DNA from: an uncultured virus (IMG/VR IMGVR_UViG_3300042879_004569)
Taxonomy: Duplodnaviria > Heunggongvirae > Uroviricota > Caudoviricetes
Virus record (IMG/VR): IMGVR_UViG_3300042879_004569
Length of the DNA: 22,210 nucleotides
Strand: one strand, 5' to 3'
A program made the translations under genes and the position numbers. Of the stretch, positions 408-17,878 are shown in pieces. The notes under the pieces are model-generated. The model made no database searches, had not been told where the DNA came from, and saw only the letters and a list, made by a program, of their open reading frames with translations. How positions within the stretch are numbered: the stretch's first letter is position 1; each line of letters begins with the position of its first letter.

Positions 408-2273
408 TTAATGTGTTTCAGCCCATGTCGATCCTACGTGGGCATCGCCTTCAATTGGACACTGGAAACCAAAAAATTTCTGTGCCTTTGGAAACGAATC
501 CAACGCCGTTTGTTTCAACGTTTCAACCATGGAGTGTGGGCAAGAGATTTGGATTTCATCATGGATCATGGCGTGTTGTTGCCAATCCATTCCATAAACA
601 AAACTTTTTTCATCCATTGCTTTATGTAGTTCAATAACTACTTGTTTCATAATCAATGCACCAGATGATTGTAATAAAACATTTAAACCTTTGAATTCGG
701 AACGGCAGTAAAGAATACGCCCGTCTAATCCTTTTAAATAATTCCTATCTTGAATGGTACCCTCAAGCATACGCTTTAATTGACGCAGAGCAGGCACACC
801 ATTCATGAATGAATTAATAGCGTTACTTCCCATTGAACGTAGAACTTCTTGATCTTTTTCATTCGGATCAATAATTGTGCCAGCTTTTAATGCACCACAG
901 CCATACAACAATCCATACAACAAACGTTTACTAATGTCTCTGGTAGCCACACCAAAACGTTCTTGATTGTATGTATGGATATCAATGTTTTCGTTTGTAA
1001 CAATTGAAGCGTATTCACCTTGATCCCAGAACGCCAGATATCCTGCAAGGCAACGAAGTTCTAATGCCTTTGCATCAACACCGATTAAAACTGATCCTTG
1101 CGGCGCGTGAAAAAGATTCCGGCATTCTTTTCCGTAAGGCGAATAAGACGCTGGAACTTGACCCATATTTGGATTACGATGTGCGCAGCGCCCAGTAATG
1201 CAACCGTTAGTAATAAGGTCGCCATGAATACATAGATCGTCATTGTTGACAAGCTTGAGCCAGGCGTTGTTTCCATCTGCTATTTGGCCAAGTCTTTTCT
1301 CAACGAGCATGTATTCCGCAAGGGACTTTGCCTCAGGATATGGAAGTGCTTCAAGTACATCGTCATTAAGAACCGGGTTGCCTTTATCAGTAGTTTTTTC
1401 TGGAGTCCACCCGTACTTCGACTGTAAACGTTCAACAATTTGCGTGCGAGAACCAGGATTAAATTCCCGATATGCAACTTTAGTGAAGGGTTGGCCTTTA
1501 ATATATCCACGTTTTGAGTTGTTAACCTTTGGTACAAATATAGTTTCATTTTTAATAGGTGGAAATAATTCTTTTAAATGGGCTTCAAGTTCTTTTTGTT
1601 TTGCTCTGAGATCATCCACCAAATCAAGACATGCATCAATATCAAAAGGAAAACCTGTTCTAATTTGTTGGTCAATTGCCAGAGCAAAGTCGTGCTCAAG
1701 TTTGAGAGCGGATTCACCATAGTTTTCTTTTTGGATGAGCTGGAATAATTTGTGAGTGACGTTGACATCCTGGACGCAGTAGTCCAACATTTCCTGCGAG
1801 TACTCTGTGAAATCTTTAAATTCAATTTTGTGATCAGCCAAGCGATACCCCCATGCCTTAAGGCTCGCGGACCCCTTAAGCTTCGGTGGAATATCCGAAT
1901 ATTGTTCATTGTCAAGGTCATTTAGAATCTCCTTGGGCCAGATGAGTCGAGTACAAATGAGTGTGTCGATAATTCGTGCGGCACGAAATGTATAAAACGG
2001 ATATAGCTTTTTAATTACCGGAATGTCATAAAACAAAACATTGTGCCCAATGAGCACGTTACCTTGAGCCAGATGCTCAAGAGCAGCATTAATGCTGTCA
2101 GGCCCGTAAGTAAAAGTTTTGTTTCCGTAGATATCATGTATGACAATGCAGTGGATCTTTGTAACATTGTCATACAGGTTATCAGTTTCTATATCAAAAA
2201 TAAACCAGCGTTCATTTTCTGAAACGCGCTTCATCGCAAATTTGGAGTTCTTCACAGGAGAGGACTGGGTCAT
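408..2273 (-). CDS. polA: Family A DNA polymerase, T7 gp5-like, with 3'-5' exonuclease
   Basis: ExoI FDIETD, ExoII GHNVLFYD, ExoIII YCVQD; motif A GVDAKALELRCLA, motif B RDISKRLLYGLLYG, motif C HDEIQ. The true start may be ATG 2234 (MKRVSE). Confidence 0.97.
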   Translation of the reverse strand: MTQSSPVKNSKFAMKRVSENERWFIFDIETDNLYDNVTKIHCIVIHDIYGNKTFTYGPDSINAALEHLAQGNVLIGHNVLFYDIPVIKKLYPFYTFRAARIIDTLICTRLIWPKEILNDLDNEQYSDIPPKLKGSASLKAWGYRLADHKIEFKDFTEYSQEMLDYCVQDVNVTHKLFQLIQKENYGESALKLEHDFALAIDQQIRTGFPFDIDACLDLVDDLRAKQKELEAHLKELFPPIKNETIFVPKVNNSKRGYIKGQPFTKVAYREFNPGSRTQIVERLQSKYGWTPEKTTDKGNPVLNDDVLEALPYPEAKSLAEYMLVEKRLGQIADGNNAWLKLVNNDDLCIHGDLITNGCITGRCAHRNPNMGQVPASYSPYGKECRNLFHAPQGSVLIGVDAKALELRCLAGYLAFWDQGEYASIVTNENIDIHTYNQERFGVATRDISKRLLYGLLYGCGALKAGTIIDPNEKDQEVLRSMGSNAINSFMNGVPALRQLKRMLEGTIQDRNYLKGLDGRILYCRSEFKGLNVLLQSSGALIMKQVVIELHKAMDEKSFVYGMDWQQHAMIHDEIQISCPHSMVETLKQTALDSFPKAQKFFGFQCPIEGDAHVGSTWAETH

Positions 2274-6221: not shown

Positions 6222-6297
6222 TGGTACCCGAGGTGAGATTCGAACTCACGCTAGAACGATTTTAAGTCGTTTGCCTCTTCCGCTGGGCTACTCAGGC
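6222..6297 (-). tRNA. trnL: tRNA-Leu(UAA), 76 nt, short variable loop, CCA encoded
   Basis: Acceptor GCCTGAG/CTCGGGT, anticodon arm AACGA-CTTAAAA-TCGTT, T arm GTGAG-TTCGAAT-CTCAC, discriminator A, then CCA. Confidence 0.92.
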
Positions 6298-12371: not shown

Positions 12372-12719
12372 CTAAAGATACAGATATCCGCCAGCCCAGT
12401 CAGCACGTTTAAGGCATTGCTCAAACGATGCGTCGTCCAGCAGTTGATAGCGCACATGCTTTGCAGGCGCACGCCAGCTGGCTGGTTTGTAAACGCACCC
12501 AGTCTGGCGATGAACAAACGCATGGACTGACTTGGAGCCGTGGTCACTCATTACGATCTTCAAGTATTTAGTCCCAGGAACCACTTCAAATGTAAGATGG
12601 TCTTTGTGGTAGTACTGTGAATTTCCGTTACGACTGGCGTAGTTCTTTACTAAAACGTCCAACAACTTGTTGATACGTTCATTAAGTAAAGCAGTGTGTT
12701 CTTTAAGAGATGTTGTCAT
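12372..12719 (-). CDS. Conserved-type phage hypothetical protein
   Basis: KYLKIV...SVHAFV...TGCVYKPASWRAPAKHVRY...ADWAGGYLY motif recalled from cyanophage hypotheticals. Confidence 0.8.
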   Translation of the reverse strand: MTTSLKEHTALLNERINKLLDVLVKNYASRNGNSQYYHKDHLTFEVVPGTKYLKIVMSDHGSKSVHAFVHRQTGCVYKPASWRAPAKHVRYQLLDDASFEQCLKRADWAGGYLYL

Positions 12720-12910
12720 TTGGTGCGTTGAATAGTTGGTGAACTGACATTGGTAATGTCAACGCCAAGCATGGCGCCAACAGTGATAGATGCAATGGCA
12801 ATGACAAAGAGTGTGCCCACGAAAGTGAGCAACGGATGAGTCTCATAAGACTCACCGTAAGAGTCAAGGTGAACGTATTTACCTTCACCTGTTTTGATAA
12901 CGTGTTTCAT
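12716..12910 (-). CDS. Small membrane protein
   Basis: MKHVIK...LLTFVGTLFVIAIASITVGAMLGV; ATGA overlap with the downstream gene. Confidence 0.7.
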   Translation of the reverse strand: MKHVIKTGEGKYVHLDSYGESYETHPLLTFVGTLFVIAIASITVGAMLGVDITNVSSPTIQRTK

Positions 12911-12937
12911 AAGTTGAGATGTTGAGTAACAATAGTG

Positions 12938-12997
12938 TGCAGGAAGTAAATCCTGCAAGAAAGCCTGGTGTTACTCAGGCCTTGATGCAGGAATTAA
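12938..12997 (-). repeat. Switch-hairpin repeat family 2, copy A
   Basis: stop-UUAAU-UCCUGCA...[GGCCUG/CAGGCU]...UGCAGGA-UUUACU-UCCUGCA. Confidence 0.75.
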
Positions 12998-13399
12998 TCA
13001 GAGTTCAACGGGCTCTAGCGTTGGCTGGGCCTTAGGTTTCTTGACAACAGCTTTAGGTTCATCCTTCGGTTGAGGCTTGGAACCAAAGGCATAGTCAATA
13101 ACCTTGAGTTGAAACTCTGGTTGCTTGAGCGGAATAAGTTCGTCATCTTTGAGATAAAACGAACGAATGCCCTGGATTTTACCGGTAACATGCAACTCTT
13201 GTCCAACGACAAGGTTGTTGTTCTTGTACGCAGTCAGCAATCCGTTCGAGTTAAGAAACCGAACAGTGATTGTGGAATCTTGAGTGATTCGATGGTACAA
13301 GGTAACAGCCAGGCAATCCCGCTCGTCTTCTGTTTGCAAGACTTTGAGGTCTGCAATGCGACCAACGAGAGTCAGTGATTGAAGGTCAGCGTAAGCCAT
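12998..13399 (-). CDS. SSB-like OB-fold protein
   Basis: SLTLVGRI...AVTL...TVRF...LVVGQELHVTGKI pattern; lacks a classic acidic DF tail. Confidence 0.6.
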   Translation of the reverse strand: MAYADLQSLTLVGRIADLKVLQTEDERDCLAVTLYHRITQDSTITVRFLNSNGLLTAYKNNNLVVGQELHVTGKIQGIRSFYLKDDELIPLKQPEFQLKVIDYAFGSKPQPKDEPKAVVKKPKAQPTLEPVEL

Positions 13400-13428
13400 A
13401 AGTTGAATTGAATTGAATGCAATGAATA

Positions 13429-13504
13429 GCAGGATGTTGAGTCCTGCAGTAAACCCACCGTCCGATACGAATTCGTATCAAAACGGAAGGGTTAAATGCA
13501 GAAA
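13429..13504 (-). repeat. Switch-hairpin repeat family 2, copy B (contains a 16-bp palindrome)
   Basis: stop-UUUCUGCA...[AACCC...GGGUU]...UGCAGGA-CUCAACA-UCCUGC. Confidence 0.75.
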
Positions 13505-13744
13505 TCAATCGAGGTGATCCAATTCCCATTTAATCAGTGCCTTATTAGCTTGAACTTTGCGTTCAATCACAGCACAGAAAGGAATTAGATCTTTGAACTC
13601 ACACATGTGATCCTGCCATTGAAAGAAGATTTCCAGCGCAGCTTGACGCTGTGCTTCGAGTTCTTGATCAATGACAGGGGCATCTCTCCTGGCAAGCAGG
13701 CGAGCTTCTTGTGTGAGCAGATGTTCAACGGCTTTAGGAGTCAT
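13505..13744 (-). CDS. Hypothetical protein
   Basis: MTPKAVEHLLTQE...; leader CTCAATCATG. Confidence 0.7.
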   Translation of the reverse strand: MTPKAVEHLLTQEARLLARRDAPVIDQELEAQRQAALEIFFQWQDHMCEFKDLIPFCAVIERKVQANKALIKWELDHLD

Positions 13745-13775
13745 GATTGAGTCCAGTTGGAGTTGAGTTGAATTA

Positions 13776-13826
13776 GCAGGATGAATCCTGCAGAAACCCA
13801 TCAGTAACGATGGGTAGTTGCAGAAA
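13776..13826 (-). repeat. Switch-hairpin repeat family 2, copy C
   Basis: stop-UUUCUGCA...[ACCCAUC/GAUGGGU]...UGCAGGA-UUCA-UCCUGC. Confidence 0.75.
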
Positions 13827-14024
13827 TCACAAGTAATGTTTGTCGACGCAATAGTAAGTATCACCAAGAAAACCGGTGATCATTACTAATTGATGCGTCG
13901 CCTTTGACGGACAATGTTTAATGTAGTGCTGGTTGATTAGCTTCTGACAGGCAACTGCCAAAAGCATGCCAACACCTGTGCCAAGTACCATGGCAAGCAC
14001 TGGAGACATTGATAGATTTCTCAT
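13827..14024 (-). CDS. Small membrane/secreted protein
   Basis: Hydrophobic VLAMVLGTGVGMLLAVAC; TAATG coupling with the upstream gene. Confidence 0.65.
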   Translation of the reverse strand: MRNLSMSPVLAMVLGTGVGMLLAVACQKLINQHYIKHCPSKATHQLVMITGFLGDTYYCVDKHYL

Positions 14025-14257
14025 TAGACGTTAACCAGTTCCATGCACTGGCAGTAGTTGTAGTAGTCCACAAGTTCAGCTTGAAGTTCACTGACTCCTG
14101 ATGGAATGCCGCAGCCAAGGGTGCGGACAGTACGATCAATCCACTTGGGATTGCCATACTCATCAATGGATTCAGTTTCGTAATGAAGCTGAGTAGACTC
14201 ACCGCCATACCAAACGACACGGTCGTTGGAATAAATGTTCGGTTGATAAATGAACAT
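14024..14257 (-). CDS. Hypothetical protein
   Basis: MFIYQPNIYSNDRVVWYGG...; leader CCTCAACCAATG. Confidence 0.7.
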   Translation of the reverse strand: MFIYQPNIYSNDRVVWYGGESTQLHYETESIDEYGNPKWIDRTVRTLGCGIPSGVSELQAELVDYYNYCQCMELVNV

Positions 14258-14294
14258 TGGTTGAGGTGAAGCCAGGAGTAATGCACCTGGCAAT

Positions 14295-14341
14295 AACTGG
14301 ACCAGGGTTTGCACCTGGTCACCCGCTTTTACGGATCAGTT
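14295..14341 (-). ncRNA. tRNA-mimic repeat family 3, copy X
   Basis: AACUG AUCCGU-AAAA-GCGGGU GACCAGG-UGCAAAC-CCUGGUC CAGUU. Confidence 0.7.
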
Positions 14342-14488
14342 GCAAACTAATTCCTCACTAACAAGGAACCGTTCACCTTCCTCTGGTTCTTGAGATTGAA
14401 CATATTTGTCAGCCGCTTCACGGCTAGCAAATACACCCAAGAAGTGATCCTGGTACAGATCACAGAGGATAACAACGTAAACCAACAT
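14336..14488 (-). CDS. Small hypothetical protein (50 aa)
   Basis: Manual translation MLVYVVILCDLYQDHFLGVFASREAADKYV...; AGGAG 6 nt upstream of the ATG. Confidence 0.75.
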   Translation of the reverse strand: MLVYVVILCDLYQDHFLGVFASREAADKYVQSQEPEEGERFLVSEELVCN

Positions 14489-14531
14489 GGTTTACTCCTG
14501 TTGTGCGGTACCCATCTCCGCTGAGGGTAAT

Positions 14532-14578
14532 AACTGGGCAGGGGATTGCACCCTGCCTCCCGCTTTAACGGATCAGCT
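14532..14578 (-). ncRNA. tRNA-mimic repeat family 3, copy Y
   Basis: AGCUG AUCCGU-UAAA-GCGGGA GGCAGGG-UGCAAUC-CCCUGCC CAGUU. Confidence 0.7.
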
Positions 14579-14770
14579 TTTGACAATAGAGAGGAAGGTT
14601 GTGTTGACCTGGGACATGCACTGACTTACTTGTAGCTTCGGCATGATTGCCTGAGCTACTGCAATGCGTGCGGCAATAACTGCCTTGTTCAACTTCTCCC
14701 TGCTCTTGTCGTTCTCAACTGAGACTGCTGCATTGTGCAGTTGCTTTGCAACGAACTGACGAATAGCCAT
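14573..14770 (-). CDS. Hypothetical protein, first gene of the leftward cluster
   Basis: 65-aa ORF whose stop lies in the first stem of repeat Y. Confidence 0.7.
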   Translation of the reverse strand: MAIRQFVAKQLHNAAVSVENDKSREKLNKAVIAARIAVAQAIMPKLQVSQCMSQVNTTFLSIVKS

Positions 14771-14915
14771 TGGTAAAAATGCAGATGAATACTTGCGTTT
14801 AACGGATGCGCAACCCCCGAACTAGTGAATAACAGTTCTATTTCAAGCGTCCGCGAGTGCGGAGCGCGACCCAAAATCAGGCGCGAAGTGGGCTATAATC
14901 ACCCAAAGAACGGTC

Positions 14916-14961
14916 GATACGAATTCATATCACGCGATTGACAGTGATACGAACTCTCATC
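14916..14961. promoter_or_regulatory. Tandem operator-like palindromes
   Basis: GATACGAATTCATATC (14916) and GATACGAACTCTCATC (14946) flank TTGACA. A perfect version lies at 13464-13479. Confidence 0.55.
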
Positions 14962-15246
14962 AACGTAGTTAGGGGCGTTCCCGCTCCTCCTCGTTGTTAC
15001 CTTCGCTTCTCAAAGGTATAATCTCCATCCCGTTCTCCTCCTTTAAAATTGAGCTTCGCTTTACCACCACCCCCCTCCTTTCTTTTTTTCTATACAGGAA
15101 CTCCTTCGGGTGGGTGGGTGGAGAAGAGTCAGGTAATTCTGTACCCTATTCGGGATATATAGGGCCGATCTTTGTATAAACACAAACATTTTAAGTAAAA
15201 ACCAATTTTTGTAATGGTTTTACCTAGTTAGCCCAAATTTTTAAAC

Positions 15247-15270
15247 AAAAAAGCCGGGGTCTTTCCCGGC
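15247..15270 (-). terminator. Rho-independent terminator
   Basis: GCCGGG-AAAGAC-CCCGGC-TTTTTT on the minus strand. Confidence 0.8.
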
Positions 15271-15297: not shown

Positions 15298-15513
15298 TTA
15301 TTTTTCCCCAACCGAGGTCTTAAATAGCTTGGCGGCTTCCGCTGCTTTCTTAAAAGCATCAACATCAGGTAGGGCAAACGCTAATTCCTTGGCGCCTTCC
15401 TGCACAAAATTGCGAACTTCCAGGGCGTCAGCCCCTTGATCCGCCATTGACAAAGCACGTTCTTTAATTTTTTCCAGTGCTTCGACTTTTTTAAGACGTT
15501 CTTCGGCTTTCAT
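15298..15513 (-). CDS. Small helical hypothetical protein
   Basis: MKAEERLKKVEALEKIKERA...; followed by a terminator. Confidence 0.7.
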   Translation of the reverse strand: MKAEERLKKVEALEKIKERALSMADQGADALEVRNFVQEGAKELAFALPDVDAFKKAAEAAKLFKTSVGEK

Positions 15514-15622: not shown

Positions 15623-17878
15623 ATGCCCCTTTCTCCAGCCGATTTTTACGCTTACAGTCGTGCTACTGGGGCGCCATTAGCCGATACTCCTGAAAAACGG
15701 GCGGAACAAGCGCCTGAAGTTGTGGCATTCCGCCAAAATCAACTTAAAGCCCCTGAAAACCAGTCAGATATTTTTAGTGTTATAGGTAATGCAGCCCTTG
15801 TGGGCGCTACTGCAGCTGGAGGTTTTCTTGGTGGCCGTGCCTTGGCTCGTGCCGTCCGAAATCGGGGTGCGGCTCAGGGTGTGAAAAAGGCCATGGTCCA
15901 AGATTTGTCCCCAGAAGCCGTTCAAAACGTTCGTCGCGCAGCTTCTTACCAGCAACCAGCCCCTTCCAAGGTAGTTTCTGAGATTGTTGAGGAGGTCAAA
16001 CCAAATCTTGGCGTTCAAATGGTTGACTTGGCGGCAATGAACAAGCCTGCCACCATTCCTGAAACACCAATCCCACAAGCAACGAAAGCTTTACCAGCAG
16101 CTCGTAAGGCCCCTGGGCAAGGTTTGACTGAATATCTCAGCACAGCTGGGTATGTGAAACCAGAAATTGACACGGGCACTCCGTACGCAGCTCGTGAAGT
16201 AGCTCAAATGACTTACGACGCCATGGAAGTGGCTCCTGAGTTAGATGTAGCAGATCGGTTGCTCCGTGAATACGAAGAAGGTCGCCAATATCGTGCTGTT
16301 GCTAAAACCAAAGAAGCAATGGCGGGCGATGTAATTGAACAACTTCGTGGTGAAAGTTTAACTGCTCAACAACAGCAGTCAGCTATTCAGCAAGTTGATC
16401 ATGCACTTGAAGCGTTTGGTTCTGCAGAAGACCAAATGACTGGTCGTGTTCGTCAGCAATTACAACGCAACGAAGATTACGACTTAAGTCAAATTGATTT
16501 ATTGGAAGATCTTGCAAAAGAAGATCAACGCTTGATGCGACAACAGGCTCAACCAAGTCAAATGATTGGTTACGAAGCCAATCCTCAACCACAAGAACTT
16601 TTTATTCCAGGACATAAAGATATTTATGATTTAGAAGAGTATTTGCCTGCTAATTATTCTCCTGATAGTGCAATTAATCAAATTGCTTCTCAGTTGCCCG
16701 ATGGCGTTCCTGTTGATCAGGTGGAAGAAACGGCAAGGACTAGCGCACAAAATTATTTGACCAGGGCACGGGAAGAAATTGCTTCTCAACTTGGGGAGCA
16801 AGGTTTGCCAATGTCTCCTTCTCGAATTGAAGCGGAACTTGCGAATCGTTTTGGTTCTAAGGCTTATGAGTATGGCTCCAAGCAAACAGGACGCCGTCAA
16901 GCCCTGGAACTCTATGCACAAACAGGTGATCCTCGTTTACTGGAAAACATTCGCCAAGAAACCGTTAAAGTTGGTCAAATGGGTGAAGTGCCCGTTGCTG
17001 AACTTAAAAAGCCAGTTGCAATTCCTGACGTTGTTGAGCGTTCCGAACAACAATATCAAGAGAAAGTTGGCAAAGCCCAAGATTGGCTTGGTAACTTACG
17101 CTTGAAATTAGAACCGAAACGAAATCAAATTCTTCAAGAGCGTCGCCAACTTGTTGAGCAAACAGCATCTGAATTGAAACCTCAACTTGAAGATGCTCGC
17201 GCTCGCAATCAAATTGGACGGGTTAATCTTCTGGAAAAACAGTTAAACAACTTGCGTACTGTTTGGAAAACCCCTGAGCTTGGCATGCACCGCAAAGAAG
17301 AATATGATCAATTAACAAGGCAGATTGAAGGGGCTCGCCAAACAATTAATCAAACCATTCAAGGAATTGAACGCAAAACTCCCACAACTTTAAGGGAGTG
17401 GTCTGGTGAACCTCTCGTCGCAATTCCCGTTGCTGGCCAAGAAGAACCAATCTTGGGTTACGCAAAACGTGCTTCCGTTGAAAATCTGGAATTAGATCCC
17501 AATACAGGTGAGCGCTTAATGCAAACTCTGCAAGGTCGTTCTATCCGTGGTATTGGTGGACGACCAGATAGAGAAGCAGGGATGGGTGCAGGAGTTGGAA
17601 TTTACGGCATCGAAGCAAAAGGCTGGGGTCCTAGTGCCATGGAGCGTGGCGAAGGTGAAATGCAGTACACCGAAGCTGCAACTTTGCGCCCCACTAAAGT
17701 TGCCCCAAGCCGTACTCCTTTAACGCAAGAAGCTACTCCCCAACGTTTAGCATCGGTAGAATTATCGGAAGGCGTACGTAAAGCAGCTGATCCCCAATCT
17801 TATTTGAAACAAAAAATGGCTGAGCTTGGAATTTCTGCTATTGGAGAATCATCCCCTTGGCCCCGTAGGAAAGTTTGA
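15623..17878 (+). CDS. Large hypothetical protein (751 aa), Gln/Glu/Ala-rich, possibly virion-internal
   Basis: Long ORF with one Gly/Ala hydrophobic segment near the N-terminus and coiled-coil-like stretches; no recognised domain. Confidence 0.85.
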   Translation: MPLSPADFYAYSRATGAPLADTPEKRAEQAPEVVAFRQNQLKAPENQSDIFSVIGNAALVGATAAGGFLGGRALARAVRNRGAAQGVKKAMVQDLSPEAVQNVRRAASYQQPAPSKVVSEIVEEVKPNLGVQMVDLAAMNKPATIPETPIPQATKALPAARKAPGQGLTEYLSTAGYVKPEIDTGTPYAAREVAQMTYDAMEVAPELDVADRLLREYEEGRQYRAVAKTKEAMAGDVIEQLRGESLTAQQQQSAIQQVDHALEAFGSAEDQMTGRVRQQLQRNEDYDLSQIDLLEDLAKEDQRLMRQQAQPSQMIGYEANPQPQELFIPGHKDIYDLEEYLPANYSPDSAINQIASQLPDGVPVDQVEETARTSAQNYLTRAREEIASQLGEQGLPMSPSRIEAELANRFGSKAYEYGSKQTGRRQALELYAQTGDPRLLENIRQETVKVGQMGEVPVAELKKPVAIPDVVERSEQQYQEKVGKAQDWLGNLRLKLEPKRNQILQERRQLVEQTASELKPQLEDARARNQIGRVNLLEKQLNNLRTVWKTPELGMHRKEEYDQLTRQIEGARQTINQTIQGIERKTPTTLREWSGEPLVAIPVAGQEEPILGYAKRASVENLELDPNTGERLMQTLQGRSIRGIGGRPDREAGMGAGVGIYGIEAKGWGPSAMERGEGEMQYTEAATLRPTKVAPSRTPLTQEATPQRLASVELSEGVRKAADPQSYLKQKMAELGISAIGESSPWPRRKV

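Follow-up and report, generated by a model that had tools for sequence, protein, structure and literature searches.

Among the systems that come closest to the element described here, the RNase III signals of the early genes of phage T7 (R0.3, R0.5, R1, R1.1, and R1.3) were reportedly described by Dunn and Studier in 1983. The T7 early sites consist of a lower stem, an internal loop, and an upper stem. For the hok-family mRNAs, the folding pathway is said to have been shown in 1997 by Gultyaev, Franch, and Gerdes by means of ‘coupled covariations’. In phage P4, seqB acts from a processed small RNA and stops the transcription of one operon. The PeSLs of T4-type phages, on the other hand, are defined by a sigma-70-like promoter together with a terminator stem-loop (excerpts of PMC2839356 and PMC4122927). 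Finally, by occluding one strand, a ribosome on an upstream frame can determine which of the alternative hairpins forms, as an excerpt of PMC12548453 has it.

The window, by which we mean the whole stretch of 22,210 nucleotides that was analysed, is phage DNA encoding a family A DNA polymerase (408-2273, minus strand), ThyX, a GP88-family protein, a PcfJ-like protein, and a tRNA-Leu; a tRNA is also the sole match to Rfam 15 that passes threshold. The polymerase is 74.2% identical over its full length to that of Synechococcus phage S-EIVl, and a 133-aa ORF (12998-13399) shares 68.5% identity with an S-EIVl frame and has homologues in six viral contigs. A DNA-level search for near-identity among phage records returned one match only (95 nt, in S-EIVl). 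By these comparisons, the window belongs to an uncultured relative of that phage. Judged by sequence, the source is a lake cyanobacterial virus, namely an S-EIVl-like cyanophage. S-EIVl itself is the single cultured member of the lineage, which is widespread in freshwater. On the minus strand, small and mostly orphan ORFs run from about 15513 down to 8446, and a divergent plus-strand block begins at 15623, a layout that suggests that the minus-strand run is an early operon.

Three consecutive spacers between co-oriented small ORFs of this run each contain one copy of the element, which confirms the repeat noted in a preliminary description of this DNA. All three are on the minus strand, a point on which that description is silent. 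The copies and the frames around them are as follows (scores in bits from two covariance models, R1 and R2).

13827 to 14024, minus strand: 65-aa ORF that ends in copy 1, without a Pfam or PHROG match
13776 to 13829, minus strand: copy 1, whole (59.3 bits, R1; 57.6 bits, R2)
13819 to 13829, minus strand: strand a of copy 1 (TGATTTCTGCA; as RNA UGAUUUCUGCA), whose first triplet, 13829-13827, is the TGA of the 65-aa ORF
13815 to 13796, minus strand: inner hairpin of copy 1, ACCCAUC-GUUACU-GAUGGGU
13786 to 13792, minus strand: strand b of copy 1, UGCAGGA
13785 to 13782, minus strand: loop of copy 1, UUCA, containing the UCA that pairs with UGA
13776 to 13781, minus strand: strand a' of copy 1, UCCUGC, followed by a 31-nt G-poor leader and the ATG at 13744-13742
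13505 to 13744, minus strand: 79-aa ORF (MTPKAVEHL...), between copies 1 and 2
13427 to 13507, minus strand: copy 2, whole (64.1 and 64.0 bits)
13507 to 13497, minus strand: strand a of copy 2, beginning with the TGA (13507-13505) that closes the 79-aa ORF
13496 to 13449, minus strand: long inner hairpin of copy 2, containing the palindrome GATACGAATTCGTATC
13448 to 13442, 13441 to 13435, and 13434 to 13429, minus strand: strand b, loop, and strand a' of copy 2, with the downstream ATG at 13399
12998 to 13399, minus strand: 133-aa ORF, between copies 2 and 3
12937 to 13000, minus strand: copy 3, whole (60.7 and 59.9 bits)
13000 to 12998, minus strand: the actual stop at copy 3, a TGA 4 nt before the paired TAA
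12996 to 12986, minus strand: strand a of copy 3 (TAATTCCTGCA; UAAUUCCUGCA), whose UAA pairs with UUA
12985 to 12958 and 12957 to 12951, minus strand: inner part and strand b of copy 3
12950 to 12945 and 12944 to 12939, minus strand: loop and strand a' of copy 3, with the downstream ATG at 12910
12716 to 12910, minus strand: 64-aa ORF, starting 28 nt 3' of the a' of copy 3

Read in order, copy 1 consists of UGAUUUCUGCA, ACU, the hairpin ACCCAUC-GUUACU-GAUGGGU, UUC, UGCAGGA, UUCA, and UCCUGC, and copies 2 and 3 share its ends around differing inner hairpins. The succession of a, hairpin, b, and a' given in the preliminary description is thus present in three of three copies. Its placement after three consecutive stop codons holds for all three spacers, except that the stop at copy 3 lies 4 nt upstream of the triplet that pairs. 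The pattern TGCAGGA-N3-9-YCCTGC matches four times versus 0.00 expected from 100 shuffles; these four matches are the three copies, as the palindromic copy 3 is counted on both strands. A covariance model likewise finds exactly three sense copies in the window and no others. For the small ORFs that flank the elements, Pfam and PHROGs give no function, the sole match being DUF7717/phrog_818 to the ORF at 12372-12719. The start of the MTPKAVEHL... gene is also found 3' of elements in many relatives.

The element is not confined to this DNA. In six viral contig stretches with homologues of the 133-aa ORF, it flanks the gene on one side or on both, and a strict pattern scan of IMG/VR returned at least 117 stretches, many with true copies and some by chance. 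As circularity was to be avoided, further stretches were chosen independently of the element, namely 20 kb around the PcfJ-like gene in nine relatives and the whole S-EIVl genome. Two covariance models, one for the long form and one for a two-hairpin form, were built on 72 seed copies, after three of 75 candidates had been removed by eye as chance matches (L009:2128, L064:1501, and L112:37). In this search, which had been proposed at the outset as a check, each model returns the same 41 copies at E <1e-5 in 16 stretches (306,890 bases): three in the window, one in L125, two in L126, three in L127, two in L128, three in L129, five in L130, two in L131, three each in L132 and L133, one in S-EIVl, three each in L001, L003, and L004, and four in L005. 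All 41 lie in gene orientation and cluster within about 2 kb upstream of the PcfJ-like gene. Additional hits up to E = 1 comprise thirteen opposite-strand shadows and one divergent sense copy, all at 26.6 bits or less.

In 100 pattern-derived viral stretches, the model finds 111 copies scoring 31-72 bits. By comparison, no member occurs among 80 loci from the bacterial and archaeal stretches with the strict pattern (at least 120), where the best score is 29.2 bits versus 31-73 bits for true copies. The pattern is also absent from the nearest virus record (G001, 8.6 kb). A scan for the anchors only (TGCA...TGCA plus a hairpin) was abandoned for its excess of noise. The single S-EIVl copy occupies 42661-42717 of the record, and its first triplet (42715-42717) coincides with the end of the annotated CDS AHV82199. 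A dispersed repeat of the REP or MITE type is not what is seen: there are one to five copies within about 2 kb, in sense orientation only, and the S-EIVl genome has one.

In the structure predicted by RNAfold to be of minimum free energy, the long form, strand a pairs with strand b (-33.8, -41.3, and -31.4 kcal/mol for copies 1, 2, and 3). The resulting helix has 11 positions, UGA-Y-YYYUGCA facing UGCARRR-Y-UCA. Its stop triplet pairs with bases 2-4 of the b:a' loop (UGA with UCA, UAA with UUA), and one pyrimidine-pyrimidine mismatch separates these pairs from those between YYYUGCA and UGCARRR. The alternative helix of the preliminary description is present, but it is longer than described, as it includes the stop triplet. 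On this lower stem follow a 3x3 internal loop, which reads UUC on its 3' side in 26 of the 41 copies, and an upper stem of at least 7 bp. This irregular hairpin, which spans about two turns, has an internal loop, and is backed by covariation, agrees with the earlier remark that the predicted long form resembles an RNase III substrate in shape. The inner hairpins belong to a few recurring types, and their stems vary between copies of one genome; the apical loops predicted by RNAfold are UNCG in 19 and GNRA in 9 cases, that is, 28 of 91 distinct sequences.

When the first 13 nt are masked in RNAfold, the predicted fold flips to the inner hairpin plus b:a' (-29.7, -34.7, and -26.8 kcal/mol for copies 1-3), just as had been anticipated for a covered strand a. 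The predicted gap between the long and the masked form is small, with a mean of 4.6 kcal/mol. Strands b and a' are spaced by 3-14 nt.

We consider it highly probable that this two-state fold is real, and the support for it is good. The outer a:b helix was scored in an alignment that had been fitted to the other structure; it is 96.4% paired, and both sides are changed in four of its ten pairs. For the whole long form (outer plus inner helix), 94.4% is paired versus 79.4% after shuffling, a value that none of 500 shuffles attained, and 46.2% was the highest among slid controls. In helix b:a', 99.5% is paired, and three of the six pairs are changed on both sides; for the last of these pairs, 16 of the 40 cells counted as gaps and were left out, the short loops being misaligned. 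MAFFT and model alignments misplace a' at short loops, and it was therefore parsed as the six bases that finish where a' ends in the model, with a as the first 11 bases and b as the model columns, so that a' was not chosen by complementarity. In this parse, 373 of 390 long-form cells and 227 of 234 short-form cells are paired among 39 distinct copies, and neither value is reached in 2000 shuffles. Together with 31 distinct copies from the flanks of pattern-derived stretches, which themselves do not match the pattern, there are 70 (three rows were left out as truncated or mis-parsed: L072:1831, L070:1016, and L014:1991). For a:b, 652 of 700 cells are paired in these 70 copies (shuffle mean 605.7, maximum 622), and for b:a', 411 of 420 (shuffle mean 366.1, maximum 383), with 0 of 5000 shuffles as high in either case. 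Because the copies share descent, the shuffle counts overstate independence.

Stronger evidence comes from the compensatory changes that run through three strands. At a5/b7/a'1, the triplets are UAU in 44 copies, CGC in 5, and GCG in 5, and five further copies have GCA, in which a:b is kept and b:a' broken. At a10/b2/a'6, CGC occurs 51 times, CGU 12 times, and UAU three times. Larger three-strand changes are GAC-UGCA / UGCA-GUC / GACUGC (L131:5742 and L130:5990), GGUUACA / UGUAGCC / GGCUACA (L001:4401), and UGUA / UACA / ..CUGU. The stop triplet takes part as well. In the 70 copies, UGA faces UCA 42 times and UUA 5 times, UAA faces UUA 5 times, and UAA never faces UCA; at its second base, 39 copies show G-C 27 times, G-U six times, and A-U six times, and A-C never. 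The proposal that b has two mutually exclusive partners is thus upheld by compensatory changes that keep both pairings in relatives, and a', on whose conservation in homologous elements that proposal had been staked, is conserved in them. From covariation, tolerance of G-U pairs, UNCG and GNRA loops, and gene orientation, all read from sequence, we take the element to act at the RNA level.

In this respect, the hok mRNAs are alike: one strand pairs with two partners in turn, three strands coevolve, and refolding follows the removal of a partner. However, hok stands for one toxin mRNA that pairs end to end and has an antisense RNA, whereas the element is a short, repeated spacer module without a toxin gene. 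The parallel with seqA, seqB, and seqC of phage P4 is a purely formal one, in that a middle sequence has one upstream and one downstream complement. In contrast to P4, the strands of the element lie within 60-80 nt and are repeated between genes, and a small RNA or terminator is not evident.

The anchoring to stop codons is likewise borne out among relatives. The longest upstream frame ends exactly on the first triplet of the element in 70 of 95 distinct copies; in eight, the stop lies 4 nt before the element, and in the remainder 3 to 59 nt before it or, in two copies, 13 nt after it. Copies with the actual stop 15-29 nt upstream still have a perfect a', and one pair of them shows a three-strand change. 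On the other side, the next start codon follows a' by 19-31 nt in 34 of 41 copies. For four further copies, the script halted at a TTG overlapping a', and by eye the ATG is 20-31 nt off; the remaining three have 76-195 nt to the start, with further structure. The leaders between a' and the start contain 5.6% G (49 of 876 bases).

The same phage operons contain a second spacer motif, a structurally unrelated three-way junction that is not an RNase III substrate. It embeds the stop codon in its closing helix, as CUG-CAG in 37 of 41 copies, with UUA facing UAA and GUG facing CAC as variants. A GCGGAGAU...CCGC motif was named next to it as another motif.

Nothing in Rfam 15 overlaps the elements at the gathering threshold, and up to E = 5 the only overlap is a 15.6-bit match to a microRNA model (E = 4.3). 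Excerpts of the literature on cyanophage RNase III and stem-loops, on coupled covariations and metastable hairpins, and on intercistronic stops held no such element. It is uncatalogued in that it is absent from Rfam 15 and from the literature surveyed. There is no sigma-70-like promoter at the three elements, since the five sites in 3.4 kb (versus 5.3 expected) all lie outside the element-bearing spacers. No U-tract was found after either hairpin in the window copies, and the tails of relatives are A/C-rich. A lenient terminator scan flags b:a' of copies 2 and 3 (tails TATTCATTGC and CACTATTGTT) and leaves copy 1 unflagged; the sole clear terminator of the region is at 15270-15253. Without a promoter and a U-tract, the element is neither a PeSL in the defined sense, which would bring a sigma-70-like promoter and a terminator stem-loop, nor an intrinsic terminator or attenuator. 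Like PeSLs, it sits between small orphan early genes, where related genomes differ (excerpts of PMC2839356 and PMC4122927), but in place of a promoter or U-tract it has a covarying three-strand RNA fold.

Coupling by unmasking of the downstream start can be rejected too, as predicted access is equal in both folds. For 36 copies, the mean unpaired probability of the start site (-18 to +12) is predicted to be 0.62 in the free and 0.63 in the a-masked form, and openness shifts by more than 0.1 in one of the 36 in each direction. On this prediction, the earlier suggestion that the switch sets downstream expression finds no support. With equal openness, the element also lacks what defines coupling by RNA unfolding in the excerpt of PMC12548453. 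Unlike ribosome-dependent coupling systems and attenuators, its alternative hairpins hold neither the downstream RBS nor a terminator.

The reading that we put first, though tentatively, is that of a putative intercistronic processing and stability module of the type known from T7 early transcripts, extended by a strand hand-over. From the observed RNA fold, both pairings, stop anchoring, and spacing, we infer a cut, an enzyme, and a capping role in the following way. By default, the RNA would fold into a long helix of about 20 rungs that is interrupted in places; at its base, the stop triplet and a pair with b and the first loop bases, and a 3x3 pyrimidine internal loop and a very stable variable hairpin follow. 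This long form would arise first in transcription, because a' is made last, and a double-strand-specific endonuclease would have it as its target. Two agents might remove strand a, namely a ribosome that covers it during termination or the cut that parts the two messages. Once this happens, b would be handed to a', and the small hairpin would then stand 19-31 nt before the next start codon. After the cut, the upstream message may be capped at its 3' end by the variable hairpin and the downstream message at its 5' end by b:a'. Ribosome and cut might also act together: a cut in a single strand would leave the messages joined by the 11-position a:b duplex, from which a terminating ribosome and a' may release them. 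That b:a' is under selection implies that a is regularly removed.

The T7 signals are similar in that several copies lie between consecutive early phage genes, each an irregular hairpin of about 20 rungs with an internal loop, and in that a hairpin is left to protect the message end. The T7 sites are not known to possess a third strand able to re-pair the 3' arm or a stop codon in the lower stem, whereas the element has both. Furthermore, the host here is a cyanobacterium, and the likeness considered is one of anatomy.

A hint of processing, albeit a weak one, comes from RNA libraries. Contigs from two studies end at 12990 and 12988, inside strand a of copy 3, and another begins at 12946, the first base 3' of the long helix, while a DNA contig spans the whole place. 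These libraries are three runs with 5-9% of the sampled words and gave four read-sized contigs of 151-220 nt at a depth of 2.7-3.9, in which gaps are uninformative and which say nothing of expression, strand, or true RNA ends; a stable hairpin can give the same pattern during library making, and the ends lack the 2-nt stagger of RNase III. In our view, an endonuclease cut explains more of the anatomy than the ribosome does. Several points nevertheless speak against processing. With a stop codon in the lower stem, an RNase III substrate would be open to disturbance by ribosomes, and the model does not need a stop there. The second motif, which is no such substrate, also buries its stop, and this points to a reason related to ribosomes or cassette boundaries. 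The small predicted energy gap between the two states counts against processing as well.

The next reading in order, although one we hold to be rather unlikely, is a translation-sensing switch without an obligatory cut. A terminating ribosome with the stop in its A site covers about the next 10 nt with its mRNA channel, which would be all of a. On the embedded stop, such a ribosome would leave b to pair with a'; upon its departure, the freed UGA would use the UCA of the loop as a toehold, and a would displace a'. The switch would report translation of the upstream cistron and could gate decay, the handing on of ribosomes, or the insulation of the next cistron. Stop anchoring (70 of 95 distinct copies exactly, eight more at 4 nt) is explained by a terminating ribosome, a case strengthened by the paired stop of the second motif family in the same operons. 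The pairing and covariation of the stop triplet with loop bases, and the flip to the b:a' fold, on average 4.6 kcal/mol less stable, when 13 nt are masked, are also as such a switch would have them. Yet it has no visible output, as the next start is equally open in both predicted states (a shift in one of 36 copies each way) and neither a U-tract nor a promoter offers a transcriptional one. Copies with a stop 15-29 nt upstream, which puts them beyond the reach of the ribosome, still have a perfect a', and the stable tetraloop hairpin and the fixed spacing are left unexplained. It is the geometry that suggests the ribosome as a trigger.

More speculative, and in our opinion doubtful, is a combination in which the stop codon serves as the toehold of a strand-displacement switch. 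Each spacer module would then sense ribosome occupancy of the upstream stop: where a ribosome is absent, b would return to a, and the helix that marks the RNA for cutting would form. If true, this would give the phage operon an RNA-only polarity or quality control, in a cyanobacterial host that is not known to have Rho, and the stop buried in the unrelated second motif would hint at a principle that is general and convergent.

We judge it improbable that the element is a static structural insulator or barrier, which would keep the spacer folded, with a' as a stand-in partner, and block exonucleases, scanning RNase E, or post-termination ribosomes between cistrons. In its favor, b is always covered by a or a', which leaves the G-poor leader as the only long single strand, and structure just 3' of a stop is reported to lower translational coupling (in an excerpt of PMC12548453). 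A simple hairpin would suffice for this purpose, however, and this reading does not account for the conservation of the internal loop, of the Y-Y mismatch, and of exact complementarity among three strands.

Still less probable is that the element is chiefly a recombination module in the manner of PeSLs, with a, b, a', and the leader as homology patches that shuffle small early genes and the fold as a secondary matter. It is true that the same downstream gene (MTPKAV... or MAYAD...) is preceded by elements with differing inner hairpins, that one hairpin type recurs before different genes, and that copy number ranges from 1 to 5. In a lake metagenome, moreover, the match of short contigs from other strains is confined to the element or the second motif, and the sequences on either side of it diverge. 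Such element-only matches and swapped hairpins and genes indicate that the modules are also junctions of genome mosaics, like PeSLs. Homology patches, however, need no compensatory changes, tetraloops, or fixed orientation, and the sigma-70-like promoter that defines a PeSL is missing at the elements; recombination is compatible with the other readings as a by-product and is not a rival mechanism.

A DNA-level site, be it an operator or a cruciform with three half-sites, is scarcely credible: b and a' do form a palindrome containing CTGCAG, but half-sites differ within one genome (e.g., GGA, GAG, GGG, and GUC), stems covary with G-U pairs tolerated and UNCG or GNRA loops, and the spacing from b to a' varies from 3 to 14 nt.

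Whichever of these functions applies, two exclusive folds that are both kept by three-strand changes are direct evolutionary evidence, of a kind rarely seen, of a working RNA switch, and here that evidence spans dozens of natural variants. Because the switch is short, repeated, and tied to stop codons, it offers a tractable test of how termination, refolding, and message processing are linked in cyanobacterial phage operons, for which these links are little known. With this finding, moreover, a widespread lineage of freshwater phages gains at least one uncatalogued RNA motif and probably three.

The spacers of the window hold a second stop-anchored motif besides the three-strand element (strand a, inner hairpin, strand b, loop and strand a'), and it is listed here together with the other features to be discussed.

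Features of the window and of two related stretches of viral DNA
14500-14586 and 14257-14345, minus strand: second stop-anchored spacer motif
14505-14521, minus strand: motif GCGGAGAURGGNACCGC
13463-13480, 14915-14932 and 14945-14962: palindrome GATACGAATTCGTATC, at the tip of the inner hairpin of element copy 2 and in two recurrences
15253-15270, both strands: intrinsic terminator, GCCGGGAAAGACCCCGGC then TTTTTTGTTT
6222-6297, minus strand: tRNA-Leu with UAA as anticodon, amid the replication genes
13449-13638 and 14340-14503: stretches affected in contigs of run X1
L033:1491-1511 and L056:1491-1511: partly duplicated strand a

The second spacer motif, of which 41 distinct copies were counted in the fetched loci, runs from nCUGA through UCCGUnnAAGCGGG, a 7-bp stem and the loop UGCAAAC to CAGUUAUURC. 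The stem covaries freely (GACCAGG, GGCAGGG, CCGGAGG, GGCUAGG, and UGGGAGG are among its variants), and the loop is near-invariant. In 37 of the 41 copies, the UG of the stop codon and the base preceding it pair with CAG; UUA:UAA and GUG:CAC occur as variant pairings. A search of Rfam returned no family matching this motif.

Directly 5' of start codons, downstream of either the element or the second spacer motif, 36 of the 135 loci carry GCGGAGAURGGNACCGC. Since the pairs formed by its flanking YACC/GGUR cross those of GCGG/CCGC, as judged by eye, this motif may be an H-type pseudoknot. The replacement of UACC:GGUA by UGCC:GGCA, likewise read by eye, looks compensatory.

Within the element itself, the long helix (the pairing of strands a and b, including the stop triplet) contains a conserved mismatch between the fourth base of strand a and the first loop base, namely U-U (25), C-C (24), U-C (12), and C-U (0) among 70 copies. 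This pattern could reflect either lineage structure or a structural rule. In the homologues L033 and L056, UGACUCCUGC is followed by UAACUCCUGCA or UGACUCCUGCA, a partial duplication of strand a with the real stop in the first of its two copies, and UAA/UUA versus UGA/UCA is a clean double change between them.

The palindrome of copy 2 is also the tip of elements from five related stretches (L010, L022, L025, L130, and L131) and recurs, with 94% and 78% identity, in the non-coding 14771-15240, about 470 nt heading the small-gene run. It is a possible protein site. The terminator, the only clear intrinsic one in the region, lies directly after a 71-aa ORF (15298-15513) and before this long non-coding stretch.

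In contigs from lake metagenome DNA (run X1), 188 and 162 bases that lie between spacer motifs are skipped, and other contigs of that run match the window only over 45-50 nt of a motif, with both flanks unlike it. The difference between co-occurring lake strains appears to lie in gene cassettes that have these motifs as their borders.
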